DNA of 64,000 bases from an uncultured Planctomycetales bacterium (GTDB taxonomy: Bacteria > Omnitrophota > Gorgyraeia > Zapsychrales > JANLHA01), in contig CAZAXH010000004.1 in assembly GCA_964489065.1 (NCBI GenBank), positions 82,553 through 146,552 on the forward strand. The letters are read 5' to 3'. How positions within the stretch are numbered: position 1 is the first letter of the stretch; the number at the start of each line of letters is the position of its first letter. A program made the translations under genes and the position numbers. This document shows, piece by piece, positions 6,345 to 63,031 of this stretch. The notes under the pieces were generated by a model. It had not been told where the DNA came from. It saw only the letters and a program-made list of their open reading frames with translations, and did no database searches.

Positions 6345-6496
6345 TATGAAGCACTACGTTCCTATTAACAATTTGCCTCGAGGAATGGGCTGACTTCTTC
6401 ATATGCGTGCAGACATCCCCGAAGCAGAAGACCTTGTTATCCTCCCGCAGTCACCCCCGGGACTACCCGGGGTCTTCTGCGAAGGCGGATAAACAC
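6345..6496 (+). repeat. intergenic element family, copy A (5' box, hairpin GCAGAAGACC...GGTCTTCTGC, 3' tail GAAGGCGGATAAAC)
   Basis: The copy contains tatgaagcactacg, then aacaatttgcctcgaggaatgggctgacttcttcatatgcgtgcagacatccccgaagcagaagacc, a nested CCCCGGG/CCCGGGG hairpin, and ggtcttctgcgaaggcggataaac. It aligns to copies B-F. Confidence 0.7.
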
Positions 6497-6589
6497 TATC
6501 TAACCGGCCAAGCCGGGCACAACAGAAAAACCCTCTACAAGGCCGCCGGGACCGGGAGTATTATACATTTTTCTCCCCATGCCGGCCGT

Positions 6590-8383
6590 CTATTTTTCTA
6601 AAATATTTTTGTAAAGCGCATGCGCATGACTATAAATCACATCCCCGGTCTTTAAAAGCGGCAGCAGGCGCCCCAAGGCTTCTTTCGCCTCCAAAGGTTT
6701 GCCCTGCGCCACCAGGCTCGAGGCCCAGTTAAACAAAAAGTCGGGGTTCTCCGGTTCCAGCATGACCGCCCGCTCAAAATGAGCTACGGCCGTATCCAGG
6801 TCCGCGGTCTTGGAACAAATAATCCCAAGCGCGGCATGCGCCTGGGCGTCATTAAAGTCTTCCGTCAGCCGTTTTTCATACTGGTACCGCAGGGCTGTAT
6901 AGGTGGCCTGAACGTTCTTTTCCCACACGTGCCGCAAGCCGCCGGGATCGGTAATGCTCTCATATTGCCGCAGCCCCTCCCACAACCTGCCCTGGTCACA
7001 CAGGGCCTTACCAAGGGCGATACGCGCGTTGACCACATCAGGGGTTAATTCCAAAATCTGGCGGAACTCCCGTTCCGCGTCCGTCGGCTGCCCGTTGCGT
7101 GCGTAGACGTACGCAAGATTATACCGGACCCGCTGATTCCGGGGGTTCAGTTCCAGCGTGCGGCGGAACATTGCGATCTCGTTGCCGGAATAAATGTTCT
7201 GCTGAACTGTCATTAACATAAAATACCCCAGAAGGCCGATCAGCATGATCCTGAAAACCCGGTCCGAAACAAAACGCTTCCGCGCGCCCCAGCCGTAAAA
7301 ACCTTCCACCGCCAAGGCCGTCACCGCGAAAAACCCAATCGAGGCGGAGTACACAAAATGCTCGGCGAGAGAGATATAGCCGGCCTGCACGCCGATAGAA
7401 ACCAAAACCTGGGACACCGGCATCAGCTCGATCACAAACCAGGATATAAAAAACGCCCCCTCCGCCCGGATCCGCCGCCGGAACACGAAGAGGACAAGCA
7501 AGATCAGGCCATATACGCCCAGGGTCAGGCGGACCTCGGGGTCAGTAAACGCGACAAAAAGCCGCTGGGCCCGGTCGAACTGAAGATCAACCGGATGAAT
7601 AAAAATCCGGAAATAGGTCAACACGCCCCGCAAAAAACTTATAAACCCCAAGGCGGCTTCCTGCTGGCTCGGCCAGTAAAAAAGATGCGTAATGCCGAGG
7701 TGCTTACGTAAAAGCAGGTACAAGGCGTCAATCAGGAAAAACGGCAGCACCGGCTTTAAAACGCTGCGCCGGCCCTGCACCGGCATGCGTAAAAACCACC
7801 GGTACGCCAGCATCAAAAGAGGCGTGACGCCGGCCGACTCTTTGCTGAGCAGCCCCAACACCAGACACACGGCCGAAACAATATACGCGCTTTTGCGGAA
7901 TTCCCCCATGCAGAAAAAATGAAACGCGTTAATCGAAAAAAACGCGCTCAAAAGGATCGCCCGGCCCGGCACGTTTGAAACCGCCTCCCACTGCACAGGA
8001 TGAACCGCGAACAACATGGCCACCGCGAACGCGAAAAATTTACGACGGGTCATAAACATGATGGTTCCGAACACAGAGAGAGCGGTCAGGATATGCAAAA
8101 TAATATTGTCCAAGTAATAATAATAAGCGTTTAAGGCGTAAACATAATATTCCACCATAAAGCTGAACGTCACCAACGGCCTGTAATAAGAATTGCTCCC
8201 AAAGAAGGACGAAGAAAACACCTCCCTCAAATGGCTGAAACTGCGCAGGTTCATATTATTGACAATGCAATATTCGTCATCCATGGTTTTAAACTGCCCC
8301 TGTAGGGCAAAAGAATACACCACGAAGGTCATCAGGGCGATCACGCACTGCAACACGATGGTTTTTGACAAAAACGCTCTCAT
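6590..8383 (-). CDS. PMT/TMTC-like polytopic membrane protein with C-terminal TPR repeats (putative GT-C glycosyltransferase), paralog 1
   Basis: The N-terminal ~400 aa has about 10 TM helices and a DD/DE-type loop motif (MDDEYCIVNN) followed by YYRPL. The C-terminal ~200 aa are TPR repeats. The architecture matches DUF1736/PMT_2 + TPR (TMTC-like). Confidence 0.65.
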   Translation of the reverse strand: MRAFLSKTIVLQCVIALMTFVVYSFALQGQFKTMDDEYCIVNNMNLRSFSHLREVFSSSFFGSNSYYRPLVTFSFMVEYYVYALNAYYYYLDNIILHILTALSVFGTIMFMTRRKFFAFAVAMLFAVHPVQWEAVSNVPGRAILLSAFFSINAFHFFCMGEFRKSAYIVSAVCLVLGLLSKESAGVTPLLMLAYRWFLRMPVQGRRSVLKPVLPFFLIDALYLLLRKHLGITHLFYWPSQQEAALGFISFLRGVLTYFRIFIHPVDLQFDRAQRLFVAFTDPEVRLTLGVYGLILLVLFVFRRRIRAEGAFFISWFVIELMPVSQVLVSIGVQAGYISLAEHFVYSASIGFFAVTALAVEGFYGWGARKRFVSDRVFRIMLIGLLGYFMLMTVQQNIYSGNEIAMFRRTLELNPRNQRVRYNLAYVYARNGQPTDAEREFRQILELTPDVVNARIALGKALCDQGRLWEGLRQYESITDPGGLRHVWEKNVQATYTALRYQYEKRLTEDFNDAQAHAALGIICSKTADLDTAVAHFERAVMLEPENPDFLFNWASSLVAQGKPLEAKEALGRLLPLLKTGDVIYSHAHALYKNILEK

Positions 8384-10155
8384 GGATTTTCGCTCCTCTG
8401 TTGCACGAGACGGGACACATAGCGGACGTTGGTGTCGTCCCCGGCAAACCCTTCTACGGCCGTAAGCAGCCGCCGCGCTGCCGGGATATCTCCCAGTTCG
8501 AGATAGGCGTGAATCGCGTACACATAGGACAAAGACACAGTCGCGTCCAGTTGAATCGCGTTCAGAGCGGCGGACACCGCGCGAGGGTAATCGTTCTGCA
8601 AAATATACGCTTTGGCCAAATCGATATGCGCCGGCAGGAAATCCGGCCTTAGGCGGATGGTTTTCTCAAAATACCGGACCGCCTGGCCGGGGTCGCGCGC
8701 ACAACAGCGGCCCAGGTTATGCCAAAGCAGGAAGTTGTCATCCATCGCCGGGACGAACGGGTTGCGCGGGTCTTTCCGGGCGTATTCTTCAAAATAATAT
8801 TTCGCTTTATCGAATTGGGCCTGCTCGAAATAATTCAACCCCAGCACCCAGGCTGGCCGGGAACTGTCAGGATAGTTCCGGAGCATCTCCAGGCAGGCGG
8901 AAAAATTGTTCTTAAAAAAACTATTATTCCCGAATGTCGCCGCCATGCAAACTCCGATAAGCGCGGCCCTGAACATCAGCGCGGCGCGGGACGCGGGCCA
9001 ACGGGCCGCCAAAAACCGGGAAGCGCGTTCAACCCCCATGGCCAAAAGAAGAAACATGCCGACGGCCGGGAGATACATAAAGCGGAACGCAATCGGATTG
9101 GGCAGCCAGACGATATTGGAAACCGGCAAATACGCGATCACAAACCAGGCCACGGCAAAAAAGACCAGCGGCCGGCGCTTCTGGCCGCGCCATGCGGCCA
9201 CGACGCCAACGACGGCCAACACGGCCATCACCGCCAGCCCAAAACCGTCCCCAGGAGCCCAGCCCGGCGTATACAGGGGCGGCAGCACGGTCACAGCCAC
9301 GGGGAAAAGAAATACCTTTAAATATTCAAAAAAAATTTTTCCCGCGATCAGGCCGGAGGAAGCCAACCCCGTGCGGAAAAAAAGATATTTCGGATAATGC
9401 TGGCTGGGGCAAAGGACAAAATAAACAATCAGGTAGGCCAGTAAAATTAAAAAATACATCCGGTATTTTTTCTCCCTGGCCCGGACAAAGGCCCCCCATA
9501 ATTGGTTCTGCGGTTTAAAAATATATCCGTCATATAAAACCAAAAGCGGGATTAAAACCAGGGCGGTTTCTTTGGCGAAAAGCGCCAGCCCAAACGCCGT
9601 CAGAGATATTCCCAAAAATCTCCCGGAAGAAGGACAGGCGCATTCGGCGCGATAGTACGTTAAGAGGGCCGCCAGGATCAAAAGGGTCGACAGCAAATCG
9701 GACCGGTACCCGATGCAGCTCACGGCTTCCGACTGGATCGGATGGACACCGAACAGTAAAGCCGCCATAAACGCGAACGCCGGGTTGGGGCAAAGCGACC
9801 AGGCCAGCATAAAAACAAGCCCCACCACAACCAGATGAAACACAATATTGGTTAAATGATGCCCCGCGGGGTTGTCCCGGTAAAGCGCGTAATCTGCGAA
9901 AAACGTCAACGCCGTCACTGGGCGGTACGATATCAGCCCGGAATAAAAAGTCTCCTCCCCTTTCCAGTGGGGCTGGTATTGTTCCGGCGCCATCACCAGC
10001 TTCCTGCTGAATAAATACCTTAAATGGGCAGGATGTTTATAAAAAGAATTATTCCGGAAAATAGACAACGAATCCCCGATAAAACCATTATTCAAACAAT
10101 TCGAGAATGAGAGGAACGTCAGAGTGAAAAGAAGAATAATCGTGCGTTTTGTCAT
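8380..10155 (-). CDS. PMT/TMTC-like membrane protein with C-terminal TPR repeats, paralog 2 (tandem, 4-bp overlap with paralog 1)
   Basis: Architecture is the same as paralog 1: polytopic N-terminal domain (FIGDSLSIFRNN loop) and C-terminal TPR repeats. Its stop overlaps the start of the downstream paralog (ATGA-type overlap at 8380-8383). Confidence 0.65.
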   Translation of the reverse strand: MTKRTIILLFTLTFLSFSNCLNNGFIGDSLSIFRNNSFYKHPAHLRYLFSRKLVMAPEQYQPHWKGEETFYSGLISYRPVTALTFFADYALYRDNPAGHHLTNIVFHLVVVGLVFMLAWSLCPNPAFAFMAALLFGVHPIQSEAVSCIGYRSDLLSTLLILAALLTYYRAECACPSSGRFLGISLTAFGLALFAKETALVLIPLLVLYDGYIFKPQNQLWGAFVRAREKKYRMYFLILLAYLIVYFVLCPSQHYPKYLFFRTGLASSGLIAGKIFFEYLKVFLFPVAVTVLPPLYTPGWAPGDGFGLAVMAVLAVVGVVAAWRGQKRRPLVFFAVAWFVIAYLPVSNIVWLPNPIAFRFMYLPAVGMFLLLAMGVERASRFLAARWPASRAALMFRAALIGVCMAATFGNNSFFKNNFSACLEMLRNYPDSSRPAWVLGLNYFEQAQFDKAKYYFEEYARKDPRNPFVPAMDDNFLLWHNLGRCCARDPGQAVRYFEKTIRLRPDFLPAHIDLAKAYILQNDYPRAVSAALNAIQLDATVSLSYVYAIHAYLELGDIPAARRLLTAVEGFAGDDTNVRYVSRLVQQRSENP

Positions 10156-10184
10156 GCCCTTAAGGGACTTCCATACCGCTGGTT

Positions 10185-10349
10185 ATTGTGGAACCCACAC
10201 CGATGGGCGTGGGTACTGCTAACAATTCGCTTCGCGGAATGATCTGACTTTTTAACACATGTGAACATCCCCAGAGCAGAAGACCGTGTAACCCATTCGC
10301 CTTCATTCCGCGGGCGTGCCTATGGTCTTCCGCAAAGACGGATAAAACC
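10185..10349 (+). repeat. intergenic element family, copy B
   Basis: The copy reads tgtggaacccacaccgatgggcgtggg, then aacaattcgcttcgcggaatgatctgactttttaacacatgtgaacatccccagagcagaagacc, a loop, and ggtcttccgcaaagacggataaaacc. Confidence 0.7.
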
Positions 10350-10374
10350 ACGCAGGACACCGGGCAGGAAGAAC

Positions 10375-10662
10375 TCATCGCGGGACGTACGTGTTCTGCA
10401 GTTTCTTTTTATTATATGCGCTCGAGGCGCCCTGGACGCACCCAACGACCACCCCAAGCAATATCCACACAGCTGTTATCCCGATGCAAATTTTACCCCA
10501 GAGGATAAATTTTTTACCGATCGGGCTTAAAACCCCGAATTCATCCTTATTATTTTTTCCGGCAAAAATGAAAATGACACCGCATATCAACAGGACAACT
10601 TCCATAAAATCGGCTCCCGGATTTCTTCCCCCGCCCCCCTCATGGGTCGGACATCCTGCCAA
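10375..10662 (-). CDS. small hypothetical membrane protein (95 aa)
   Basis: Two predicted TM helices; no similarity recognised; weak support. Confidence 0.3.
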   Translation of the reverse strand: MAGCPTHEGGGGRNPGADFMEVVLLICGVIFIFAGKNNKDEFGVLSPIGKKFILWGKICIGITAVWILLGVVVGCVQGASSAYNKKKLQNTYVPR

Positions 10663-10691
10663 GACTGCAACGCCCGCTGTTAAAAAAAATA

Positions 10692-10765
10692 AGCCGACGA
10701 GAGGAGTTGAACCTCCGACCCACGGTTTACGAAACCGTTGCTCTACCGGGCTGAGCTACGTCGGC
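10692..10765 (-). tRNA. tRNA-Thr (anticodon CGU)
   Basis: The minus-strand sequence GCCGACGTAGCTCAGCCCGGTAGAGCAACGGTTTCGTAAACCGTGGGTCGGAGGTTCAACTCCTCTCGTCGGCT folds as a cloverleaf. Acceptor 7 bp, D stem GCTC/GAGC, anticodon stem ACGGT/ACCGT with loop TTCGTAA, T-loop TTCAACT. CCA is not encoded. Confidence 0.85.
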
Positions 10766-10989
10766 GTAAAAAACAATTGCGGATGCGTTTAAAAAATAGC
10801 ACCCAAGAAATATTGTGATATTTTACCGAAAAAATCCCATATTGGCAATAACTTTACCACAAAGCTCTCCCGACCGCCTTAAACAGTACAAAGACAGCCC
10901 CTTCAATATAAAAGGAACTGTCTTTGTGTTATCTCTGCCTCCCAGTATGAAACAAAAACCATAAGCCGGACAGTGTTAGCGGGGCCGCC

Positions 10990-11553: not shown

Positions 11554-11643
11554 GCCCTCCTTTTTTAACAGATTCCCGCCGTACACCCCGCTCACTCTCG
11601 TTGTCAGCAAGCCATAAAGACGAAACTGAATCTGCGCCTCATC

Positions 11644-12666: not shown

Positions 12667-12849
12667 ACTGTTACTCCTTGTTTAGGCTACAGACAATTAT
12701 AAAATCTTAATTTCCCCTATCCTGCGGCCCCGGAATGGATCGGCCGGCTGTTCAAATAATAAACACAAATGTCATCCCGTTTTTTAAACTATCCGGGTTT
12801 CATTTCTTAGGCAACGGCATTGCATAAAAGCTCGGCATGCGTGAAATCA

Positions 12850-12960
12850 AAGGTATAACCCCAAAAGCAAACGCTGGACTTTCTTGCCCCGCGAATGCTC
12901 TTTGCCATTAAAAATTATACGTTAATTCCGGACGCCAATCAAAACAATTATACAAATTAC
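12850..12960 (+). repeat. degenerate remnant (copy H) of the intergenic element's promoter-proximal module
   Basis: ggtataaccccaaaagcaaacgctggac...gccccgcgaatgc...caatcaaaacaattatac aligns to the 62803-62860 part of copy E and to 22130-22180. The core hairpin is missing. Confidence 0.35.
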
Positions 12961-13011
12961 CATTAATCCTTGCTCTTTTAAAATATAGATCCGGGAAAAG
13001 CGGCTTGCCTG

Positions 13012-14599: not shown

Positions 14600-14807
14600 A
14601 TGGCCGTGGGTTTCCCGCGATAATAAAAAAATCTTGTCTGGGCCCTTGATTCATCACGTTACGCCTTCCCCCCGGGACATGGCAACAGATGACTCCACCG
14701 GGTTCGGCTGCGTCATTAGAAATGCAAACATCCCCGGGGCAAAAAACTTTGTGGACCCCTCGCATCCAGGGGCATGCCCGTGGCCTTCTGCTCATGGGGA
14801 TAAAACC
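14600..14807 (+). repeat. intergenic element family, copy F (divergent porin/MCP region)
   Basis: The copy reads ...ttagaaatgcaaacatccccggggcaaaaaac...ggggcatgcccgtggccttctgctcatggggataaaaccc. The 5' part is partly degenerate. Confidence 0.55.
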
Positions 14808-20071: not shown

Positions 20072-22102
20072 TTACGGTTTTAACGCCTCCGCCTGCGTGA
20101 TCAGGTCCTTAAAGCGCGGATCGTCCGGAGCCCGGTGTTGCCCCTCCTGCCAGGTTGCGATGGCGCGGGTGAAGTCATCCCTGTTGCCATAAAATTTTCC
20201 AAGCTCCACATAAGCGGCCGGATAATCCGGGTCCTTTTCCAGGGCTTTCTGGAAAAAAGACAACGCGGCCGGAGCCGCCCCAGCGGCCGCGAAGCGGCTG
20301 CCCAGAGCGGTCAACCTCCCCGCATCCGTACCCTCCGCCAGTACCCGCTGCGCCGCTTCCAGCGCCGACGGCTGCAATCCCGCCTCCAGATACAACTCCG
20401 TTAAATTATACAGGCTTTCTTCCTCATGCGGATCATATTTAAGAATATTCTGATATATTTCAATCGCGCGAAGATGCTCGCCCTGTTGCTGATACACCAA
20501 CGCCAGATTGCGGCGGGCTTCCAGCAACGCCGGATTCAGGGATTGGACTTTCAGAAAAACCTCCTGCGCCTGCTGCAGCTGCCCCGTCCGTAGATATAAC
20601 ACGCCCAGGTTGCTCCAGGTTTCGGCATATTCAGGATTCACGCCCAGGGCCTTTTCAAAATAATCCCGGGCCTCAAGGACGTTCCCCTCTTCCAGGAAAA
20701 TAAGGCCGAGATTATTCAATGTTTTATAACTCCGGGGATCCAGCCGGATAGCGTGATACAACATCTGTTTGGCGGCCCGGTAGTTCCCCACCCCCATATA
20801 CGCCGCGGCCAGATTATCATAAGGCCGCACTTTACGGGGAGATTTGCGGAGCACGTCCGTCCAGAGCGTCACCGGATTCTTCCACACGGCATTTCTCTGA
20901 TAAGTCAAAATGCCAAGCCCCGCCAGCCAAACCCCTATCACCACATAAAAAAACACACGGTTTTTAAACAGGGCCTGGAATCCTGACACGGCGAAAAGCG
21001 CAAAGCCGGTCAAAGCCAGATAAAGCCAATGCTCAAAAATCATATCCTTCCCCAGCAAAGCGCTTGACAGGAATTCCATCATCAGGCTGACAAGGAACCA
21101 AATAACGCAAAAGCTGAAAACCCGCCGCCGGTTAAACTGCCGGCACGCCCAGGCCGCCAGCCCCACGATCAGGATGATGGACAGAAGCGTCTGCCCTTCC
21201 CACACGCTTTGCGCCCGGGGGAAATCGTAATCCAAATTCTGCCGCACAGGCGCCAGGCATAACCAAAAATACGTTCTCAAAGCGTTCAAAGCCGTCAACC
21301 CGTTATTGACATGGAACCGGCCTGTGGCAAGCTGTTCCCGCAGGTCAACGATAGAAGATGACCGCTCCGCCAGCAGGCTAAAAGGGATAATAAACCAGGT
21401 CAAAAAAAACGGGGACAGCCGTTTCAGGCCCCCCAGGAGGCTCTCGTAGGAGCGGCGGATAAAAAACACGTGGATAATAAAAAGCATCAACGGCAGCGTA
21501 AAGGCGAGCTCTTTGGAAAACATCGCCAGAACCGCCGCGGCCAGGGAGGCGATATAATAATCCCGGTGGGCGGCACCGGCCCATTTGAGATAAAAAACAA
21601 TAGAAAGCAAATAAAAAAACACGGCTAAAAGCACGGCCCTTTGGGAAATATAATTGACCGCCTGGGTCTGCAAAGGATGTGCCAGGAAAACCAAAGCGGT
21701 CAACACGGCGGTGACCGCCGGCGCGCCGGCGTCAGCGGCGGAACGGCTTTCAAAAAACGGTGTCTGTAAAAGCTTCCTCACAAACACGAAGACCAAAAAC
21801 GCGTTCATAAAATGAAGCAGCAGATTGACCACATGATACCCGAAAACATCAAGTCCGCCGAACCGGTAGTTAAGCGCAAAGCTTAAACCCGTTACAAACC
21901 GGGTGTTGAAACTCGCCCATAGCGCCGGCCAATTCCAGAGAGAACGAACGGCGGGATTATGAATAATAAAGATATCGTCATCCAGGTGAAAAGTATTGTG
22001 GAGTGAGTTAGCATAAATCGTCCCGCCCAAAAGGACGATCAGGACAAAGGCGGCAACCCGGGCCCGGTCGGTAAATAACGACATTTTCTCTTGATTTTGC
22101 AT
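20072..22102 (-). CDS. PMT/TMTC-like membrane protein with C-terminal TPR repeats, paralog 3
   Basis: Polytopic N-terminal domain with HLDDDIFIIHNPAV loop motif; C-terminal ~250 aa TPR repeats. The start is trimmed to MQNQEK (GGAG 9 nt upstream) because 22125-22222 is a repeat remnant. Confidence 0.65.
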   Translation of the reverse strand: MQNQEKMSLFTDRARVAAFVLIVLLGGTIYANSLHNTFHLDDDIFIIHNPAVRSLWNWPALWASFNTRFVTGLSFALNYRFGGLDVFGYHVVNLLLHFMNAFLVFVFVRKLLQTPFFESRSAADAGAPAVTAVLTALVFLAHPLQTQAVNYISQRAVLLAVFFYLLSIVFYLKWAGAAHRDYYIASLAAAVLAMFSKELAFTLPLMLFIIHVFFIRRSYESLLGGLKRLSPFFLTWFIIPFSLLAERSSSIVDLREQLATGRFHVNNGLTALNALRTYFWLCLAPVRQNLDYDFPRAQSVWEGQTLLSIILIVGLAAWACRQFNRRRVFSFCVIWFLVSLMMEFLSSALLGKDMIFEHWLYLALTGFALFAVSGFQALFKNRVFFYVVIGVWLAGLGILTYQRNAVWKNPVTLWTDVLRKSPRKVRPYDNLAAAYMGVGNYRAAKQMLYHAIRLDPRSYKTLNNLGLIFLEEGNVLEARDYFEKALGVNPEYAETWSNLGVLYLRTGQLQQAQEVFLKVQSLNPALLEARRNLALVYQQQGEHLRAIEIYQNILKYDPHEEESLYNLTELYLEAGLQPSALEAAQRVLAEGTDAGRLTALGSRFAAAGAAPAALSFFQKALEKDPDYPAAYVELGKFYGNRDDFTRAIATWQEGQHRAPDDPRFKDLITQAEALKP

Positions 22103-22124
22103 CAGCGGGAATTCTCCGGTCAAC

Positions 22125-22262
22125 AAAAAAGCATGAACCCCAAAGCAAGCCCTAGACCCAATGAACCGCAGCAACCTGCGGGGTATTACACACACATCCT
22201 TCGACCCGTTCGCCTGGCTCACTAATATTTTTCTCAGAGCCGGCGGCCTCTTCCCCCGGTCT
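22125..22262 (+). repeat. degenerate copy (G) of the intergenic element (promoter-proximal module plus decayed core)
   Basis: tgaaccccaaagcaagccctagacccaatgaaccgcagcaacctgcgggg is followed by catccttcgacc...ggtcttgggtgtattctaatggataagacggc. The first part aligns to copy E at 62803-62860. Confidence 0.4.
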
Positions 22263-42914: not shown

Positions 42915-43052
42915 CTATAGGAGACCCCGCGCCCATAGGCATGGTTCCGAGGAACCATTCGCTTTGCGAGATGATCTATCTTTCTTAACATCCATGCAAA
43001 CATCCCCAACGCAGAAGACCACGGGCACGCCCGTGGTCTTCTGCGAAAACAG
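42915..43052 (+). repeat. intergenic element family, copy D (perfect 17-bp inverted repeat)
   Basis: ctataggagaccccgcgcccataggcatggttccgaggaacc is followed by attcgctttgcgagatgatctatctttcttaacatccatgcaaacatcccc. The hairpin is aacgcagaagaccacgggc-ac-gcccgtggtcttctgcg and the tail is aaaacagataagcagg. Confidence 0.7.
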
Positions 43053-43088
43053 ATAAGCAGGTCTTCCCGTCCTATCAGCTGCCCCGTG

Positions 43089-45188
43089 TTAAAACAACGA
43101 GACATTCATGACGAATGACGCGAAAACAATTGCAACAATCGACATGAGCTTAATAAGGACATTTAAACTCGGGCCTGAAGTATCCTTGAACGGATCGCCC
43201 ACCGTGTCTCCCACAACAGCGGCTTTATGCGCCTGAGACCCCTTGCCTCCATGATTGCCTTCTTCAATATATTTCTTGGCGTTATCCCAGGAGCCCCCGG
43301 CATTCGCCATCATAACCGCAAGCACAAAACCAGTCACCGTGGCGCCGGCCAACAACCCCATTTCCGCTTCCATCCCGATAAGAACGCCGGTTAAAACAGG
43401 CGCGACAATGGCCAGCAGCGAAGGAAGAATCATTTCTTTTTGCGCGGCGGCCGTGGCAATCGTGACACAGCGGGCATAATCGGGTTTGGCCTTCCCGTCC
43501 ATCAGACCGACGATTTCCTTAAATTGACGGCGCACTTCAACGACAATCATGCCGGCGGCCCGGCCCACGGCGCGCATCGTCATGGCACAGAACAAAAACG
43601 GCAGCATGCCTCCTATAAACAAACCGACGAGAAGATTGGGATTCAGCAGGCTGAGATTCATCGTTTTTCCCAATAAAACAACCTGGCTGTTAAAGGCCGC
43701 AATCAAGCCCAAGGCGGTTAACGCCGCGGACCCGATGGCAAAACCTTTTCCGGTGGCCGCGGTCGTGTTGCCGAGAGAATCCAGAGCATCGGTTCTTTTC
43801 CTGACTTCCGGCGGCAGGCCGGCCATTTCAGCGTTTCCTCCGGCATTGTCCGCCACCGGCCCATAAGCGTCCGTCGCCAGCGTGATCCCTAACGTGGACA
43901 GCATCCCGACGCCGGCAATAGCGATACCGTAAAGACCGGAATTAAAATTCGTGGCCCCGCCGGACAGAAAATAGCTGGCCAGGATCGCGACCCCGACAAC
44001 GAGAACCGGGAGCGCCGTGGACATCATCCCCACGGACAGGCCCGCGATGATGACCGTGGCCGGGCCGGTGAGAGATTGTTCTGCGATATATTTCGTCGGC
44101 TTAAAGTTACTGGACGTGTAATATTCCGTCACGACGCCGATGATGACCCCGGCCAGAAGGCCCGCCAAAACCGACCAATATACGCCCATATGCTCCACGC
44201 CTAAAATCCAACGGACAAGAAAATAAGAGACAAAGGCCATAAGGATCGAACTGCTCCATACGCCTTTTCTCAAGGCAGCCAATAACGCCTGCTGCGTCGC
44301 ATTCTCTTTTGTGCTCACGAAAAACGTGCCGATCACCGAGGCGATGATGCCCACGGCCGCCATGATCATGGGGACCATGACCCCGGCCACGCCTAACCCG
44401 GCCGCAACACCCAGCGCGCTCGTCGCGACAATAGACCCGACATAAGATTCAAAAAGATCCGCCCCCATCCCGGCGACGTCCCCGACGTTGTCTCCGACAT
44501 TGTCGGCAATAACCGCAGGATTGCGGGGGTCGTCTTCCGGAATCCCGGCCTCGACTTTACCGACCAGGTCAGCGCCGACATCCGCAGCCTTGGTAAAAAT
44601 TCCTCCGCCGACCCGGGCGAACAGGGCCAGGGAACTGGCGCCCATGCTAAAAGTCAGCATCGCCGAAGTGATGGCGGTAATCTTATCCATATTCACCGGA
44701 AGAGGATGGCCGGCATAATACCAATCCAGAAAATAATACCACGCCGTCAGGTGCAGCAGTCCCAGCCCTACCACGGTCAATCCCATGACCGCCCCGCTGG
44801 AAAAAGCCACCCGCAAACCCGAATTCAGGCTCTGCATAGCCGCCGCCGCGGTCCGGTTGGAGGATTGCGTGGCCACCGTCATGCCGATGAACCCTGAAAG
44901 GCCGGAAAAAAATCCGCCGGTTAAAAACGCGAACGGGACAAATATAACGACATATCCCTTAGAAGCCATCCACAACAAGACAACGAACATCACGGCAAAG
45001 AACAGCGACACGCCTAAATACTGGCGCTTGAGATAGGCCCGCGCCCCCAGCCGCACGGCCAAAGCGATCTCTTTCATCTTGTCGTTTCCCTCGTTCTCGC
45101 GCATGATGGAAAAGGCAAGATACAGCGCAAACAGCAACGCCCCGATTGAACAGACGGGTGCCAGAATAAAAAACCCGGAACCACTCAT
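43089..45188 (-). CDS. hppA: membrane-bound proton/sodium-translocating pyrophosphatase
   Basis: 699 aa; motifs [19 protein letters not shown] and [20 protein letters not shown]; about 16 TM helices. Confidence 0.9.
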
Positions 45189-45258
45189 TTTTTCCTACCT
45201 CCTTTTTTTATACCCAAACGCATTGTTAAAAAATTTTCAATAACTCCGACGGATTTTT

Positions 45259-46530
45259 TTATCTCCAAATAATCCAGACAAACATATACGCGGCGGTCAC
45301 AGCCGCGACAGTAAAAGGAAACCCTATTTTAAAAAATTCCTTAAAACTGACGATATGGCCTTCTTTTTTAAGCAGTCCGCAGGCCACGATATTGGCCGAA
45401 GCTCCGATAGGCGTAATGTTGCCGCCCAGACTGGCCCCGATCAGAAGCCCGAAGAGGAACAGCTCCGGGGGTCTATGAAGCTTATCGGCCACAGAAAGGG
45501 CGACGGGCAGCATAGCGGCCAGGAAAGGCACATTATCGATAAAAGCCGACAAAACCACCGATAAAAATACAATGAGCGTGTAACCTAAAAATATCCGGTC
45601 CCCTATCAAATGAGACAAGGAATCAGAAAAAATTTCAATCCACCCCGTTAAGGTCAGGCTGCCGACCAAGATAAAAATTCCCATAAGAAAAAATGTGGTT
45701 TCCCAATCCAGGGACTTTAAGCCCTGGAGGAGCAGGCTCTTATTCACAAATTTTTCCCACGCCAGCGAAACCGCGCCCGCGACCATACAGATCACGCCAG
45801 CGCTGTAAGAAAACCCCCGGTCCAAAAAAGAAGTGCCTGCCAGAATGACAATGGATGCGACTAAAATAAACGTCGGCACCAGGGACTGTATTTTTTCCGG
45901 ATCGATATCAGCCGCTTTTTCCTTATGGCTCTTAAAAAAGAAATACAACACAAAAAAAGACGCGACCGCCCCCAGCTCCACCGCGAAGAAAATGCCTGGT
46001 TTTCCTTTATAAAAGAAGAAATCCGCAAAAGACATTTTGGCAAAACCGCCTAAAAGCATGCTGGGCGGGTCTCCGATCAGCGTCGCTGCCCCCTGAAGAT
46101 TGCTCGACACGGCGATAGCGATCATCATGTTCATAGGATTTATTTTTAGTTTTTTCGCCAAGGCCAGGGCGACCGGTGCCACGATCAAGACCGTGGCCAC
46201 ATTCTCAACGAAAGCGGATATAAAACTCGTCATAAAGCAAATCGACAAAATAGCCCAGGCCGTGTTTTTTGATTTATCAACAATAACTTCCGCCAGATAA
46301 GCCGGGACGCGGCTCTTCATAAAAACGTCCGCCACGGCAAGCATACCGACAAAAATGCCCATCACATTCCAATTAATGGACAAGAAGGCTTCCCAAGGAG
46401 AAATCGTCCGCAATAAGACCAGCAGGCCGGATCCGATGACCGCGACGGCCGCTCTCCTGTGGCTCAAGAAAGCGAACAGGACATAAGAAACAATAAATAT
46501 AATTAAAGCGGTGGCCTGGGGGTTAAACAT
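45259..46530 (-). CDS. ArsB/NhaD-superfamily permease (ion transporter)
   Basis: 423 aa, about 12 TM helices, repeated halves, IDNVPFLAAMLPV-type motif typical of the ArsB/NhaD/CitMHS fold; subfamily not resolved. Confidence 0.5.
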   Translation of the reverse strand: MFNPQATALIIFIVSYVLFAFLSHRRAAVAVIGSGLLVLLRTISPWEAFLSINWNVMGIFVGMLAVADVFMKSRVPAYLAEVIVDKSKNTAWAILSICFMTSFISAFVENVATVLIVAPVALALAKKLKINPMNMMIAIAVSSNLQGAATLIGDPPSMLLGGFAKMSFADFFFYKGKPGIFFAVELGAVASFFVLYFFFKSHKEKAADIDPEKIQSLVPTFILVASIVILAGTSFLDRGFSYSAGVICMVAGAVSLAWEKFVNKSLLLQGLKSLDWETTFFLMGIFILVGSLTLTGWIEIFSDSLSHLIGDRIFLGYTLIVFLSVVLSAFIDNVPFLAAMLPVALSVADKLHRPPELFLFGLLIGASLGGNITPIGASANIVACGLLKKEGHIVSFKEFFKIGFPFTVAAVTAAYMFVWIIWR

Positions 46531-46699: not shown

Positions 46700-46876
46700 A
46701 TTTATTCGCTTTCTATGGAGCCCCCCGCTTACGGGCATGTCCCTATCAACAATTCGCTTCGCGGAATGACCTGACTTCTTAACATACACGCGAACATCCC
46801 CGAAGCAAGTCGTTGTTAATCTCTTGCCTTCATCCGCGGGCATGCCCGTGGTCTTCTGCGAAGGCGTATAAAATAC
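46700..46876 (+). repeat. intergenic element family, copy C
   Basis: tatggagccccccgcttacgggcatgtccc is followed by tatcaacaattcgcttcgcggaatgacctgacttcttaacatacacgcgaacatccccgaagc. Then come a degenerate arm, gcgggcatgcccgtggtcttctgcgaaggcgtataaaatacc. Confidence 0.7.
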
Positions 46877-49180: not shown

Positions 49181-51130
49181 ATGGATTTATTGAAAGGAAT
49201 GCACATGAAGCCCCCGATAAGGACAACAATCCGGCAGGCGCTGCTATCAGGGAAAGGGACAGGGCTTTTACTCGCCGCCATAACTTTCCTGATTTATTTC
49301 CATGCCTTTCCCAACGGATTCTTACTGGATGATTACAATTTTGTGGAACAAGAATATCAGGAAATATTTAAAACTCCGCAGGATTTCTTCGTGCACATTC
49401 CGCCCCGAACGCATCATTACGCCCCCCTTTATTACTGGACAAACACCGTCCTCTTTCGTCACTTTCAAGCTTATCCATATAGGATGCGCTTTATCCTGTG
49501 GATGGCGTTTCTCGCGAACGTGCTTTTTTTCTTTCAATCCATCCATCTCCTCCTGAAGGACCAAAAAACGGCTTTTCTCTGCGCGGCCTTGTTCGCTATC
49601 CATCCCATTCACGCATTCTATATTCATATGCCCAGCGGCGGTTTTGTGTTCTTCTACACGCTATGCCTGCAAGCGAGTCTGTTCTGGATGTGGAAATATC
49701 TGTCCGGCGCCGCAAGAAATACGGGCCTCTATCTCGCAAGCCTCTTATGCTTCCTGGCCGGGCTTCTCTTCTTTGAGGCCGCCGCCCTCTACCCCCTGTA
49801 TCTTTTGATTTTCATGAGATTTATCAGCACAGAGCGTTGGGGGGTTCACCTCAAACGCGCCCTGCCGTTTTTTACTCTTTCTCTAATCGACGTGTTTCTC
49901 TGGAGCTGGATATGCCGGGGAGAATCCGGTTTTCCGCAAAGAATCCTCCTGCTCGGCCTTTCTGTCCCCCGCTATACAGCGTCTGTAACGCGCCTGATAT
50001 TCTGGTATATGTCGCGGCTGCTCTATCCGGAAGGGCTCGTATTTATTTATAATATGCCCCCGGCACAACAAGAAATCTGGCTCTGGAACGGGCTCGCCGG
50101 ACTTCTATTGTTCTTATTCGTTCTTCTCATGAAACGGCGGCCTAAAGATATAAAAACCCTGGCGCTGGCCTGGTTTCTTACCGGCTGTCTCTTTGTCTTT
50201 CCCGCCAGTTTGACGCATGCTTATATGGGCATGGTGATCGAAACCCATTGGATATATTTCTCAAGCATAGGCCTGTTTCTTCTTTTAACTCTGGGCCTTA
50301 TCCGGGTTCTGAAAAAAATTCGGCCTGGTTTTCAATACGCTTGTTTAGGATTGACCGCGATCTATTTCATGGCCTGGACGCAGACCTATCATGTCATGGC
50401 GCGGTCAGAAAAAACTTACTGTGAATACTGGCTGAAAGTTTGCCCGGCGAACCTTATCCCCTTGATCAATTTATCCAAAATCTACGCCGAAGAAGGCCAG
50501 TTGACCCGGGCCACGGATTACGCCCGGCGCGCATTCCTGCTCGGCCGCGATTGTGTCCCCGCGACCTATGAAAACCTGGCTATGGTCTTAACTTTCAAAG
50601 GGGATGACGCGCAAGCGGAGGACGTCATCACCCGGGCCGCCGGCAAAGGATTCACGTCGCCTTGTTTACTCAACACCCTCGGCGTTATTCACCGCCGTCA
50701 AGGGAACAGCCTCACCGCGGAGCAGGATTTTCTCACCGCCATTAAGCAGGCACCGCGGTACGTTTTGCCCAGGTTAAATTTGGCCAAACTCTATAGTTCC
50801 TCCGGGCGGGAAAAGGAAGCCGTCCGCTGTTATGAAACCGCCCTGTCGCTCCAGCCTGATAAAAAACAAATCTTTCATATTCAACGCCATCTCATGGTGC
50901 TGTATTTAAAACAGAATGCCCCCGACCGATATCACGGGCTTGTCCAGAAGGCGCTGACCCAAAATCCTGTCCAGCGGACATACCTCCGATTAAGCCGTAC
51001 TCTTGAAACATATCATTACTGGCGTGAAGCCCAAGCCTTGTTAAACCAGGCCCAGGAACATTACCCGGAAGATGCTTCCTTACAACAATATTACCGGGAT
51101 TTTATGAAAAGATATGACGCCGCCCGGTGA
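49181..51130 (+). CDS. PMT/TMTC-like membrane protein with C-terminal TPR repeats, paralog 4
   Basis: Polytopic N-terminal domain with FLLDDYNFVEQEY loop motif; C-terminal TPR repeats. Only + strand member of the family here. The exact start is uncertain (Met at 49181 or 49193). Confidence 0.65.
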   Translation: MDLLKGMHMKPPIRTTIRQALLSGKGTGLLLAAITFLIYFHAFPNGFLLDDYNFVEQEYQEIFKTPQDFFVHIPPRTHHYAPLYYWTNTVLFRHFQAYPYRMRFILWMAFLANVLFFFQSIHLLLKDQKTAFLCAALFAIHPIHAFYIHMPSGGFVFFYTLCLQASLFWMWKYLSGAARNTGLYLASLLCFLAGLLFFEAAALYPLYLLIFMRFISTERWGVHLKRALPFFTLSLIDVFLWSWICRGESGFPQRILLLGLSVPRYTASVTRLIFWYMSRLLYPEGLVFIYNMPPAQQEIWLWNGLAGLLLFLFVLLMKRRPKDIKTLALAWFLTGCLFVFPASLTHAYMGMVIETHWIYFSSIGLFLLLTLGLIRVLKKIRPGFQYACLGLTAIYFMAWTQTYHVMARSEKTYCEYWLKVCPANLIPLINLSKIYAEEGQLTRATDYARRAFLLGRDCVPATYENLAMVLTFKGDDAQAEDVITRAAGKGFTSPCLLNTLGVIHRRQGNSLTAEQDFLTAIKQAPRYVLPRLNLAKLYSSSGREKEAVRCYETALSLQPDKKQIFHIQRHLMVLYLKQNAPDRYHGLVQKALTQNPVQRTYLRLSRTLETYHYWREAQALLNQAQEHYPEDASLQQYYRDFMKRYDAAR

Positions 51131-51221: not shown

Positions 51222-51236
51222 ATCATGTTCCAGAGC

Positions 51237-56262: not shown

Positions 56263-56331
56263 AATGATCTCCTTGTCTTTTTAAAAATACCCTCTTGCTT
56301 TCCTCGGCGGACCGGGGCAACGGCCCGACGA

Positions 56332-58029: not shown

Positions 58030-58040
58030 AGGTTCTTCTC

Positions 58041-58949: not shown

Positions 58950-59338
58950 GGCGTCTCTTTTCTGTTATTAATGTCCCACTGGCGCTGAACCGCATCCAGC
59001 AGTTCCTTTTTAGCTATGGAAAGCCGTTTCGCTTCCACAACCAGTCGTTCCACTTCGTTCTGCAGGATTGCCCCCCGTTGCTCCTGGTTCCCCAGGCTTA
59101 ATTCCGATACAACGCTGCCGATCCCGGGCTTCACCTGAAGCAGCCGTTCATTCACCAGGTGAGAAACCACTTTTTGAGCCGTATTGGGATTGATGCGCAG
59201 TTCCCGGCTCATTTCCCGAACAGAAGGAAACCGGTCTCCCGGTTTTAGGTGGCCGGCAACGATGGATTTCTTCACGGCGTAAATGACCTGTTCGTAAATC
59301 GGCTCACCTGGTTTTAATGTAACATCAAAATTAATCAT
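58946..59338 (-). CDS. GntR-family transcriptional regulator (YtrA-like, short)
   Basis: The wHTH reads GDRFPSVREMSRELRINPNTAQKVVSHLVNERLL. At 130 aa it heads the ABC operon, the typical YtrA arrangement. Confidence 0.85.
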   Translation of the reverse strand: MINFDVTLKPGEPIYEQVIYAVKKSIVAGHLKPGDRFPSVREMSRELRINPNTAQKVVSHLVNERLLQVKPGIGSVVSELSLGNQEQRGAILQNEVERLVVEAKRLSIAKKELLDAVQRQWDINNRKETP

Positions 59339-59377
59339 AGGCCTATGGGATAAAGGTCGCTCTCTTGCTGACCTAAC

Positions 59378-59398
59378 TGTATTATGTTACATAGTACA
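59378..59398. promoter_or_regulatory. imperfect palindrome, candidate GntR autoregulatory operator
   Basis: TGTATTATGT-t-ACATAGTACA has 9 of 10 symmetric half-sites and lies 40-60 nt upstream of the gntR start. Confidence 0.3.
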
Positions 59399-59522
59399 CA
59401 GAAAGTCAAGAGAGATTTGCTTATTTTTTCAAAATAAGCCCCTAAAAACAAAAATGAATATTTTTTATTAAAATCAGGGGAGGACAAAAAGGAGGGGGAC
59501 ACAGATTCCGTTTGATCTCATC

Positions 59523-62006
59523 TCATACCACAATATTCACAAGTTTCTGCGGCACCACAATAATTTTCCTTACCGTTTTCCCATCCAGATGACGCTGGAC
59601 ATTCTCATCCGCCAATACCAGGGAACGCAATTCATTTTCAGCGATGTCCACCGGGACTTCCAGTTTACTGCGGAGCTTCCCGTTAATCTGAACCACCATC
59701 AGCACACTATCTTTCTCAAGCGCACGCTCTTCATAAACCGGCCAGGGGGCCCGGCTGACGCTCTCTTCTTGTCCCCCCATGACCTGCCACAGTTCCTCGC
59801 ACATATGCGGCGTCAACGGGGCCAGCAGCAAGACCACGGTGCGGACCGCCTGATTAAAAACAGCCTGTCTCACCGGATCTCCGTCCGGGCTGAATTTGTC
59901 GAGCCGGTTCATTAAAATCATAATCTGACTAATGGCCGTATTAAACTTAAAGCCGTTGGCGATGTCTTCCGTCACCTTTTTGATTGTGAAATTCCTTTCC
60001 TGCTCCAGTTCCTTCGCGTCGCCCGTCAAATTCTCATACATATATGTTTGATCCATCGGGTGGAACCTCTGTTGAATACAATTCCAGACCCGGCTTAAAA
60101 ATTTCCATGACCCGTCGATCGCATGATCATTCCATTCCAGTTGATCTTCCGGCGGAGCGGCAAAAAGGATAAACAAACGCAACGTGTCAGCCCCGTATTT
60201 GGCGATAACCGCATCCGGGTCAACTGTATTTCCTTTAGACTTAGACATGACCTCCCCGTCCTTCAGCACCATCCCCTGCGTGAGAAGCCGGTCAAACGGT
60301 TCATCAACGTTCACGAGCCCCAAATCCTTAAAAAATTTTGTAAAAAAACGGGAGTAAAGCAAATGCAGAATCGCATGCTCAATGCCTCCGATATATTGAT
60401 CCACCGGCATCCAATAAGCCGCCTGCCCGGGATCAAAGGCCCTGCGGTCATCTTCAGAAGATATATAGCGCAAGTAATACCATGACGAATCAAAGAACGT
60501 CGCCATCGTATCCGTTTCCCGCCGGGCGTCTTTCCCGCAGGCCGGGCACGCCACATGCACAAAATGTTCACTTTGGCTTAACGGGCTTCCCCCTTCCCCG
60601 GTAAACTGGACATCTTCAGGGAGCTCAACGGGCAACTCATTCTCCGGAACAGGCACGAGTCCGCAGGCCGGGCAATAAACCATCGGAATCGGCGTGCCCC
60701 AATATCGCTGCCGGGATATCAGCCAATCCCTTAACCGCCAGTAAACAGTGATCTTCCCCTTGCCCTCGGCTTCCATCCAACGGGAGATCTGTTTCTTCCC
60801 CTCTTCGTTGGCGAGGCCGTCAAATTCCCCGGAATGCACCTGCCGCCCTTCCCCCTCATACGCCTCCGTCATCTCTTCAACCGCCATCTCCGGCCGCTGG
60901 GGGTCCTGAATCACAATGCGCATAGGCAACTGATGCTCTCTGGCAAACAAAAAATCTCTCTGGTCATGCGTCGGGACAGCCATAATCGCGCCGGTCCCGT
61001 AATCCATAAGCACATAATCGGCCACCCATACCGGAATAGCCTCGCCATTCACGGGGTTGACAGCATACTGCCCAGTGAAAACACCTTCCTTCCGTTCTTC
61101 TCCGGACACCCGCATGCTTTTGCTCATCTGGCTGACCTTGGCCACAAAATCCATCACCGCCCGCTCAAAGGCGGTGCCAGCGACCAAAGTTTTCACCAAC
61201 GGGTGTTCCGGGGCCAGGACCACGTAAGTCGCCCCGAAAATCGTATCCGGACGCGTGGTAAAGACCGGCAGCCGTTCTCCCGTCTTTTGCAGGCTAAAAT
61301 AAATTTCTACCCCGTAACTTTTGCCGATCCAGTTCTCCTGCATCGCCACTACTCTCGACGGCCAGTTTTGCAGTTTTCTCAAATCCTCCAGCAGGGCTTC
61401 CGAATAATGGGTAATTTTCAAATACCACTGTTCCAAATCTTTTTGAACAACCTCATTCTTGCAACGCCAGCACTGCCCTTGAATGACCTCCTCATTCGCC
61501 AGAGTCGTTTCGCAACTCGGGCACCAGTTAACAGAGGAACTCTTTTTATAAGCCAGCCCTTTTTCAAACATCTTTAAAAAAATCCACTGGTTCCAGCGGT
61601 AATAGTCTTTATCACACGTCGCCAATTCCCGGTCCCAATCGTAAGAAAAACCCATGCGTTTTAAATTTCCCCGCATCTGGTCGATACAGGCGTACGTCCA
61701 TTTCGCAGGATGCGTTTTATGCTTAATCGCAGCGTTTTCAGCCGGTTGGCCAAACGCGTCATACCCCATAGGATGCAACACGTTAAAACCCTGCATGAGT
61801 TTAACCCTGGCGATAACGTCGGCAATCGTGTAATTCCGGACATGGCCCATGTGAATCTTCCCGGACGGATAGGGGAACATCTCCAGGCAGTAAAATTTCG
61901 GCCGGCGGCTCTCGTGTTCCGGAGTCTTAAAAACTCGCCGCTCGTCCCAAACGGCCTGCCATTTTTTTTCAATACGGGCTATTTCATTTGTGTTATATGG
62001 AATCAT
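59523..62006 (-). CDS. leuS: leucine--tRNA ligase
   Basis: [27 protein letters not shown]...[29 protein letters not shown] (HMGH) is collinear with E. coli LeuS. The start is trimmed from the track ORF to MIPYN. Confidence 0.95.
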
Positions 62007-62084
62007 GATATCAATCTCTGGTGAAAGCAAACGAGGGAACCCCCTGCCCGGCCATTCCCTCTTCAAGACGCTTCATAGAAACGT

Positions 62085-62516
62085 TTATGATTTGTAATAA
62101 TCTTTGCCCCGTCGAAGATACTGGGCATCCAGGCGTTGGGGCTTGAAGTATTCCCGGCAGAATTTTTCGGCGAAAACAGCATCAAACTCCCGGCAGCAGT
62201 AAATATCCACGCTGATAAAATTTTTTACCGATAACGTGTGAATCACAATCGAACTTTCGATTAAGGGGACCCAGCCGGATAAACCCGCCTTCTCGGGGAA
62301 ACGAACCGCGTCACTCCTGAAAAGACTGGGGGGGGACTGCTTCTCCATCCCCAGGGCCTCAACCATCTCATCCAGGAAACGGTAATTCAGCGTTAAATCA
62401 TCGCACGCACCCGGCTGACAGTTGTACAGGTCCAACAAAAGCTGATGTCCAAACGCCACGGATTCCTGACCTGTCCCGCAGGGAAAATTTTTTAAAACAG
62501 TTTGATTCATAGTCAA
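62085..62516 (-). CDS. speH: S-adenosylmethionine decarboxylase proenzyme (SpeH-type, small form)
   Basis: LLLDLYNC...ESSIVIHTLSVKNFISVDIYCC parallels Bacillus SpeH ([22 protein letters not shown]), including the self-cleavage Ser region. Confidence 0.75.
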   Translation of the reverse strand: MTMNQTVLKNFPCGTGQESVAFGHQLLLDLYNCQPGACDDLTLNYRFLDEMVEALGMEKQSPPSLFRSDAVRFPEKAGLSGWVPLIESSIVIHTLSVKNFISVDIYCCREFDAVFAEKFCREYFKPQRLDAQYLRRGKDYYKS

Positions 62517-62591
62517 TTCCTCTCAACAGTCCTAGATTATTCTATTTATACCCATCACAACCCTGTTCTTCATATAACAGCAGGCCCAGGA

Positions 62592-62795
62592 TCAGAAGCC
62601 GCAGAACTTCAAAAACACCAGCAAAAACGCCGCAATCAAAACACTTATAAGGATGGCCCGGGAAGACCATTTATATTTCATTTTGCCAAAAATACCGTCT
62701 CCGGCCCGATGCAGGCTTTCACCGCAAAAATGACACAAGAGGGCATCGTTATCATAAATCGGTTTCTTGCAATGAGGACAGATATACTCAGACAT
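62592..62795 (-). CDS. small zinc-ribbon membrane protein
   Basis: CPHC...CHFC zinc ribbon followed by one C-terminal TM helix; 67 aa. Confidence 0.4.
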   Translation of the reverse strand: MSEYICPHCKKPIYDNDALLCHFCGESLHRAGDGIFGKMKYKWSSRAILISVLIAAFLLVFLKFCGF

Positions 62796-62799
62796 AAAT

Positions 62800-63031
62800 C
62801 AAAGGTATAAACCCAAAAGCAAGCCCTGGACCCCATTAACCGCAGCAAACTGCGAGAAAGCAACAGCGGCGCCGGGTATGGAGCACCACGCCCTGCTCCC
62901 TGTTAATAATTCCCTTCGCAGGATGAACGCACCCCTTCACATACGTGCGAACATTCCCGAAGCAAAACACCTTATCAAACCCTTGCCTCCACCCACGGGC
63001 ATGCCCACACTCTTCTGCGAAAACGGATAAA
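62800..63031 (+). repeat. intergenic element family, copy E (full composite: promoter-proximal module plus core)
   Basis: ggtataaacccaaaagcaagccctggaccccattaaccgcagcaaactgcgagaaagcaacagcggcgcc, then gggtatggagcaccacgccctgctccc, then tgttaataattcccttcgcaggatgaacgcaccccttcacatacgtgcgaacattcccgaagc. Then a degenerate arm, cacgggcatgcccacactcttctgcgaaaacggataaaccc. Confidence 0.7.

Follow-up and report, generated by a model that had tools for sequence, protein, structure and literature searches.

A sequence of 140–160 nt occurs in six homologous copies, A to F, in the 64,000-nucleotide stretch of Omnitrophota DNA analyzed here (contig CAZAXH010000004.1, positions 82,553 to 146,552; hereafter the window). 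It probably represents a new family of lineage-specific, structured and non-autonomous dispersed repeats, of the same general kind as miniature inverted-repeat transposable elements (MITEs), repetitive extragenic palindromes (REP) and ERIC sequences: non-coding, co-transcribed with its neighbors and near neutral. A repeat search, an nhmmer profile (E-values of 2e-47 to 2.6e-15) and a degenerate two-block pattern agree on the identical six copies; the pattern matched exactly these six and had no match in 100 shuffles. A covariance model run over the window gave no copies beyond the six, and an extension of approximately 5 kb beyond the window held no additional ones. All six lie on the + strand as written in the original prediction; we read them on the minus strand, from a TTTATCC start to a GGCTCCATA end. 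The copies and their neighbors, together with a promoter match beside copy E, are as follows.

6345..6493, minus strand: copy A, full length but with the 3' hairpin shortened; downstream an MFS transporter gene, upstream the gene of a TPR membrane protein
10187..10346, minus strand: copy B, full length; downstream the gene of a TPR membrane protein, upstream a 76-aa membrane open reading frame (ORF), then tRNA-Thr
approximately 14664..14804, minus strand: copy F, decayed; downstream the gene of a porin-like protein (minus strand, no Pfam match), no upstream neighbor but a spacer to a divergent chemoreceptor gene (plus strand)
42916..43057, minus strand: copy D, with an internal deletion; downstream an SNF/NSS transporter gene, upstream the H+-PPase gene
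46714..46872, minus strand: copy C, full length; downstream a CitMHS/ArsB permease gene, upstream comEC
62877..63031, minus strand: copy E, full length; downstream the gene of a 67-aa Zn-ribbon membrane protein (minus strand), no upstream neighbor but a spacer to divergent thiS (plus strand)
63051..63079, minus strand: sigma-70-like promoter match, TTGACT-17-GATAAT with TG, 10/12

The original prediction had listed eight same-strand copies, each 5' of a minus-strand gene. Both statements hold for A to F (6/6), the outer limits of 6345 and 63031 match ours, and its gene calls, checked by Pfam and ORF calls, were essentially right. Its copies G and H, however, are not homologous to the main repeat and belong to a separate family, R2, described at the end.

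The placement of the copies relative to genes varies. Copy A begins 96 nt past the stop of the TPR gene (6590), and its 3' end supplies the MFS gene with AGGA and with the GTG that is called as its start (6354); an alternative ATG (6342) lies 2 nt past the end of the copy. Copy B follows the stop of the 76-aa ORF by approximately 28 nt and precedes the TPR paralog by 31 nt (ATG at 10155) or 193 nt (called start at 9993). Copy D, in which the internal deletion leaves a perfect 17-bp hairpin, sits 31 nt past the H+-PPase stop and approximately 156 nt ahead of the called SNF start. Copy C spans the final ~19 codons of comEC and the stop codon (46816-46818), an upstream stop distance of -56 nt. 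From C to the CitMHS/ArsB start there are 183 nt, and a promoter-like block that is conserved comes downstream of the copy; this position assigns C to the comEC 3' end. Copy E lies 81 nt before the Zn-ribbon ATG. The sigma-70-like match ends approximately 20 nt before its conserved 5' TTTATCC and is kept in the ortholog of the copy, so that copy E would be a transcript start or 5' leader. Copy F is the most decayed, with 60–67% identity to the others; we count its degeneracy and the deletion in D as products of decay.

One scan each of genome and metagenome contigs yielded 15 loci: six from the genome scan, in two Candidatus Omnitrophota metagenome-assembled genomes (MAGs), and nine metagenome contigs that carry no taxon label and mostly duplicate the MAG loci. 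Removal of duplicates and of orthologs of B, F and E left six further independent copies, for a total of 12 from at least three genome lineages. A scan of viral contigs with the repeat gave 0 matches. The six further copies are located as follows.

L003: between cmk and lepA
L004/L009: ahead of the gene of a 117-aa membrane protein
L005: between two pilin-like genes
L006: between the genes of an RND pump and a cytoplasmic FAD/NAD oxidoreductase
L014: between the genes of a secreted protein and a TPR outer-membrane-like protein
L010: adjoining an IS110-type insertion sequence (IS) on a 1.6-kb contig

Across copies, the distance to the downstream start ranges from 0 to approximately 190 nt, the L005 copy terminating at a start codon, while copies D, L003 and L014 follow a stop codon within gene strings by just 19–31 nt. 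Identities among the paralogs are star-like, 60–81% with a mean of 71%. The L005 and L006 copies, from non-syntenic loci of the DAOWGP01 MAG, are 89% alike, have a derived loop and tail in common, and are 66–78% identical to the copies of the window's species.

Presence, absence and divergence of the copies

Using the H+-PPase to look for homologs, we obtained syntenic contigs of graded similarity, which we ranked by nucleotide identity over twelve genes. Three of them (L018, L019, L022) come from the window's species (~94–97% identity, about 95% in summary), four (L016, L017, L021, L041) from a sister species (~70–88%, about 82% in summary), and two (L020, L040) are more distantly related. 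The window's species has the gene order comEC-citMHS-PPase-SNF-bamD in common with the sister species. Copies C and D, in contrast, occur in the window's species only; they are missing from the syntenic comEC-citMHS and PPase-SNF spacers of the sister species, and two more distant relatives lack them as well. Since they are absent beside orthologous genes, these genes do without the element. A filter-free model search of 69 kb from these other lineages found no copy, compared with six in the 64-kb window. The comEC product has 545 aa in the window and 535 aa in the sister species; the frame runs ~19 codons into C, which we count as an insertion-like effect.

Orthologs of B, F, E, C and D diverge by 9.2, 19.6, 16.8, 7.8 and 15.7%, respectively, while four-fold degenerate sites of the neighboring genes differ by 9.4–19.3%, and the divergence of the element equals or exceeds that of the flanking spacer DNA. 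Between orthologs, 12.0% of stem positions and 15.2% of loop positions have changed (p=0.27); among changed pairs, 15 are still paired and 11 are broken in one copy. As the element diverges at the four-fold rate and its stems are not significantly slower, the individual copies appear to be near neutral. The paralogs show a different pattern, with conservation of 0.88 in stem columns and 0.78 in loop columns (p=2e-4) and a near-invariant TTTATCC head. Because the orthologs drift neutrally, we ascribe this pattern to constraint that acted on the source copies when they spread.

We also observed that the citMHS-PPase block (43089-46530) is far more diverged from its counterpart in the same-species genome L018 (8655-12100) than its flanks are: four-fold sites differ by 38–45% in the block, as against 9–14% in comEC, SNF and bamD. 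Copies C and D mark its approximate limits. The pattern suggests import by recombination, possibly with the repeats near the crossovers.

Fold, orientation and origin of the repeat

On the minus strand, RNAalifold predicts a fold of two domains. The 5' head is a near-invariant, single-stranded TTTATCC(G)CCTTC. Within helix P1 (GCAGAAGACC / GGTCTTCTGC) lie a palindromic hairpin of 18 nt, CCACGGGCATGCCCGTGG, and an internal loop that varies, while helix P2 (TTCGGGGATG / CATTCCGCGAA) closes a variable loop and is followed by a GAATTGTTAATAGG tail, a second GC hairpin, CCACGCCCATGGGCGTGG, and the terminus GGGGCTCCATA. The 3' hairpin, P3, is present in most copies. The P1a hairpin lies approximately 21 nt from the left end and P3 lies 9 nt from the right end, their outer stems being similar, and several GGAUG motifs are conserved. 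In L006 (2930-2990), a nested hairpin of ~30 nt (CCCAAATGTAAAAACATTTGGG) sits between duplicated CGAAG inside helix P2 and looks like a tiny secondary insertion.

The consensus energy is -20.6 kcal/mol on the minus strand versus -13.1 kcal/mol on the plus strand, and 88.8% of cells are paired over 15 sequences, compared with 43–54% when the partners are slid. Covariation is marginal, with six pairs changed on both sides versus 3.4±1.3 in shuffles (26 of 500 shuffles reach six). On the gene-sense strand, G-U pairs outnumber A-C mismatches by 49 to 19, and the minimum free energy is lower on this strand in 11/11 copies. These last two observations are not independent evidence for an RNA, as the sense strand is also the G/T-rich replication strand, on which a C-to-T bias would generate G-U from G-C. 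Rfam 15 gave no family, whether for the whole window at the gathering threshold or for copies A and C at E<=5; a FinP match (E=0.6) lies outside the element and is irrelevant.

Several other identities were considered for the structured unit and rejected. The GC hairpins are not intrinsic terminators, as no T run follows them; no U tract was found after P1, P2 or P3 on either strand, and the scans gave only a weak terminator-like site after copy E. Neither end fits the RYYYAAC/GTTRRRY of an integron attC site, and the flanking genes are housekeeping genes (PPase, lepA, bamD) rather than a cassette array. A small-peptide gene was dismissed in the same way, since no reading frame is conserved among the copies. 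ORF callers do predict 72 aa across copy B (10160-10378, minus strand) and 82 aa across the L003 copy (3244-3492, minus strand), both being read-through of the repeat. The 72-aa product matched only itself among 5.8 billion proteins, and that ORF is almost certainly spurious.

The stable fold, the constant sense orientation of the copies in transcribed spacers, the better-kept stems and 5' head among paralogs and the excess of G-U over A-C would all be expected of a domesticated RNA module, once mobile and now retained because it performs some general function on its carrier mRNAs. This function could be protection from exonucleases, an RNase III or RNase E site, insulation of cistrons, or a platform for a GGA-binding protein. 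We regard this as unlikely, though it is the alternative that survives best: the copies drift at the synonymous rate with stems no slower than loops, the sister species does without them, a G/T-rich replication strand is expected to show the excess of G-U and a lower folding energy anyway, and covariation is marginal.

In connection with orientation, approximately 38 of the 43 real genes of the window are on the minus strand, and the window is almost devoid of spacers between tandem plus-strand genes. GC skew on the plus strand is approximately -0.13 and is negative throughout, even across plus-strand genes, which identifies it as a replication-type skew. The whole window lies in one replichore, with its genes co-oriented with replication, and gene direction and replication direction are thus inseparable here. 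The original prediction had put the chance of a uniform orientation at about 1 in 128 from eight copies; the true count of 6/6 gives 1 in 32, and even this value is confounded by the majority of minus-strand genes. Its claim that the repeat reads in the sense direction of the downstream gene is nevertheless borne out, as the flanking genes share their sense strand with one and the same strand of the element in 11/11 copies with informative neighbors (the six window copies and five independent loci; L010 was left out). In the window and at each of the eight loci scored, which cover all 12 independent copies, the structured strand lies on the G-rich strand, a result that is confounded with gene direction and for which the skew value of L010, mostly IS, is uninformative. 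As the sequence shows, the G-rich strand on which the copies lie has the leading-strand sequence, and therefore that of the lagging-strand template, and is the sense strand of the flanking genes, and the copies ride on neighboring mRNAs as 5' leaders, inter-cistronic spacers or 3' ends.

A plausible history would be that the copies spread into short intergenic spacers in the ancestor of the window's species, after the split from the sister species, and since then would have drifted at about the neutral rate. Their uniform orientation may have arisen by insertion that was strand-specific and passed through a single-stranded intermediate at the replication fork, or by selection against the opposite orientation inside transcription units; we consider the two about equally likely. 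Similar subterminal hairpins, the lack of inverted repeats and of visible duplications, and the presence of the structured strand on the G-rich strand speak for the former, while the lack of a conserved flanking target and of a known transposase speaks against it. The latter fits, because every copy is within or beside co-directional transcription units. Effects on expression would then be specific to single copies and incidental, such as hairpin effects on mRNA stability or processing, or the ribosome-binding site supplied by copy A, with no shared program.

A number of observations weigh against a near-neutral dispersed repeat. The ends, TTTATCCGCC... and ...GGGGCTCCATA, are not complementary, so that terminal inverted repeats are lacking (complementarity in the repeat is limited to the internal CTTCGC/GCGAAG pair), and no direct repeat that would represent a target-site duplication was seen in the flanks of the 12 copies. 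An autonomous element with the same ends was not found in ~450 kb of related sequence, nor was a transposase or autonomous partner identified in the sequence available. The edges in the two comparisons of filled and empty spacers are ragged, as the 'empty' genomes belong to another species, and no clean empty site was found. The fully uniform orientation exceeds that of many selfish repeat families. The better-kept stems and invariant head of the paralogs could reflect function, and a few copies now supply start context or a stop codon, so that not all are inert. Finally, the census covers approximately 12 independent copies rather than a whole genome.

A further reading, which we think distinctly unlikely, is kept in view of the perfect orientation, the invariance of the TTTATCC head and the better conservation of stems among paralogs. 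It holds that the repeat is not inert and that a strand-specific module, RNA or single-stranded DNA, is retained by the host in approximately one-fifth of intergenic spacers, mostly flanked on both sides by membrane-protein genes. Such a module could act post-transcriptionally in a general way, for instance as a site of docking or processing through which these mRNAs are coupled to one common protein, or else it could be the ORF-less form of an undescribed single-strand transposon.

Gene context and regulatory alternatives

The original prediction favored a shared cis-regulatory module, i.e., an operator or upstream activating sequence or a structured, riboswitch-like leader, through which one trans factor would control envelope genes, and it regarded the pattern as less consistent with a selfish repeat. 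We find such a module very unlikely, and the contrast drawn with a selfish repeat is not supported. Within the window, it is correct that all six copies precede membrane or envelope genes, as do, overall, 9 of the 11 independent copies. Membrane proteins, however, are the products of at least half of the window genes: a predicted membrane segment is carried by 26 of the 54 ORFs scored in a greedy ORF set, in which several of the other 28 are spurious overlaps. At a background of 0.55, 9 of 11 is not significant (p ~0.07 by our own binomial estimate), and elsewhere lepA and a cytoplasmic oxidoreductase follow copies. The proposed structured 5' leader applies to some copies literally, namely A, which holds the MFS start and AGGA, L005, which ends at a start codon, and E, behind its promoter-like site, but not to C, which takes in the comEC stop and precedes the conserved promoter block ahead of citMHS; there is no fixed placement.

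Promoter-like -10 boxes are found upstream of E, A and L004, and the 18-bp palindrome could bind a dimer, both as would be expected of a regulatory site. Yet such boxes occur at 7 of 12 copies against a background of ~0.57 boxes per 90 nt, and are thus not enriched. The proposed TTCGC direct repeats are merely the 3' strand of helix P2, and nothing links the REC-only proteins, named as candidate trans factors, to the element. The spacing to start codons varies from 0 to ~190 nt, the element is missing before the orthologous genes of the sister species, and it evolves at the neutral rate. Riboswitches and other leader RNAs resemble the repeat in being structured sense-strand RNAs upstream of genes, in several copies and often ahead of transporter genes. 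They differ in having a fixed distance to start or promoter, in being kept before orthologous genes and under constraint, in serving less heterogeneous genes and in matching Rfam families. Here the stems are fixed in sequence, the loops vary and covariation is marginal, the opposite of the core of an RNA that senses a ligand or factor. Our data reveal neither a new regulon nor a new class of regulatory RNA.

The least probable alternative, which we consider very improbable, is that each copy is an independent small-RNA gene giving an RNA of ~150–170 nt from either strand: copy E has a strong promoter-like site and a weak terminator-like 3' hairpin, but the other copies have no consistent promoter or U-tract terminator, A, C and L005 overlap flanking start or stop codons, and D, L003 and L014 lie shortly past stop codons inside gene strings.

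Two further observations concern the surroundings of the copies. Perfect TATAAT boxes are present 47–63 nt upstream of copies A (6560-6565, minus strand), B (10416 region, minus strand) and L004, the one at A being preceded by a TG that is one base off register (ATGTATAAT); taken as a class, such boxes are not significantly enriched over the intergenic background, but these three may be real promoters that make the copies 5' leaders. The window also encodes four paralogous, TMTC-like large membrane proteins (within 6590-10155, 20072-22222 and 49181-51130) with 8–9 predicted N-terminal transmembrane segments, in which Pfam recognizes the C-terminal TPR repeats only.

Known repeat families, an adjoining insertion sequence and a second repeat

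The repeat meets the broad description of a MITE in its dispersed non-coding copies, its differences in presence and absence and its genome-specific subfamily (L005/L006). A literature search for repeats in Omnitrophota returned nothing relevant. Among described families, REP/BIME sequences and REPINs, associated with RAYT (Y1 HUH) transposases (PMC3333891, PMC3116915), are similarly extragenic, highly repeated, GC-rich imperfect palindromes that are carried on mRNAs and form genome-specific subfamilies, and in them, as here, two related hairpins and linker motifs make up a mosaic unit. Single-stranded insertion at the fork has also been proposed for REP/BIME with Y1 transposases (PMC3333891). 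A REP, however, is a palindrome of 20–40 nt or a simple inverted pair, whereas the present unit has 140–160 nt and two long-range helices. The two palindromes in it, of 18 nt each, are directly ordered, a GTAG-type tetranucleotide is lacking at the hairpin foot, and the unit occurs in one orientation, whereas REPs are commonly inverted pairs.

Members of the IS200/IS605 family insert largely with the structured strand on the lagging-strand template (PMC5027513), and their derivatives without an ORF (PATE-type MITEs; PMC5027513, PMC3333891) have neither terminal inverted repeats nor target duplications; the repeat likewise has no such inverted repeats, and no duplication was seen at its copies. 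The repeat is also similar in its single orientation, in which the lagging-strand template carries the structured strand, and in its related subterminal hairpins near both ends, here CCACGGGC..GCCCGTGG and CCACGCCC..GGGCGTGG. Unless TTTAT serves as the target, the repeat differs from IS200/IS605 in having no conserved 4–5 nt target 5' of its left end: ahead of TTTATCC, the first three bases vary (GTG, GGT, TAT, CTG, GGG, ACG and others). The long-range helices P1 and P2 likewise have no counterpart in IS200/IS605 ends, and we found neither a TnpA nor a TnpB gene in the available sequence.

In transcribed, structured families of MITE-like repeats, some copies incidentally supply promoters, ribosome-binding sites or processing sites. 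ERIC, Correia/NEMIS, RUP/BOX and stem-loop families (PMC1590033) resemble the repeat in length (100–200 nt), intergenic location, co-transcription and long RNA hairpins. In contrast to the repeat, these families have clear terminal inverted repeats, often with TA duplications, and occur in both orientations.

For annotation, the repeat accounts for spurious small ORF calls, an altered comEC C-terminus and unusual start-codon contexts in Omnitrophota MAGs, and it is a marker at the strain and species level. It is also a clean case of fully uniform repeat orientation in a phylum that has received little study and whose members are ultra-small and often depend on hosts, and could serve to ask whether replication or transcription sets the orientation of repeats.

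The L010 contig consists mostly of an IS110/IS1111-type IS (1-1330, ~1.3 kb), with the element at 1296-1569. This IS has subterminal inverted repeats (AATGAATAGTTGTGTC / GACACAACTATTCAT), and its ends differ from those of the element. Homology among related IS copies stops at ...TTCATAGTAG, and the next bases are the P3 hairpin of the element copy, which places the insertion exactly at the 3' hairpin of the element. Related ISs in L027 and L030 also adjoin hairpins, a GC-rich one in L027. We considered that the element could be part of the IS, as a bridge-RNA-like end, and rejected this because homology of the IS ends approximately 70–90 nt ahead of the element and because related ISs, with transposases 77 and 68% identical, have no element. 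By the evidence of this junction, the element is a target of this IS and not one of its ends; some IS110/IS1111 members target REP sequences. Hundreds of relatives of this IS were found, most on IS-sized contigs, which indicates multicopy IS elements in Omnitrophota.

Lastly, the second family, R2, comprises units of ~70–80 nt with a small CGCAG..CTGCG hairpin followed by GTCCAGGGCTTGCTTTTGGGGTTTATACCTTTGATT. Its copies are located as follows.

approximately 12831..12910, minus strand: R2 (copy H of the original prediction), ~165 nt upstream of the substrate-binding protein gene
approximately 22114..22194, minus strand: R2 (copy G of the original prediction), upstream of the third TPR paralog
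62796..62868, minus strand: third R2 copy of the window, between copy E and the Zn-ribbon ATG
7340-7405, 7506-7573 and 8953-9002 of L009: three R2 copies on a related contig

R2 could represent a module of the promoter or leader kind, or a further mobile repeat. A sigma-54-like site was rejected, as the -24 GG and -12 GC are not kept in every copy. All copies are oriented in the gene-sense direction, 0–165 nt before start codons, and in L009 the family forms a tandem duplication of approximately 165 nt, which precedes the gene of a 619-aa protein.

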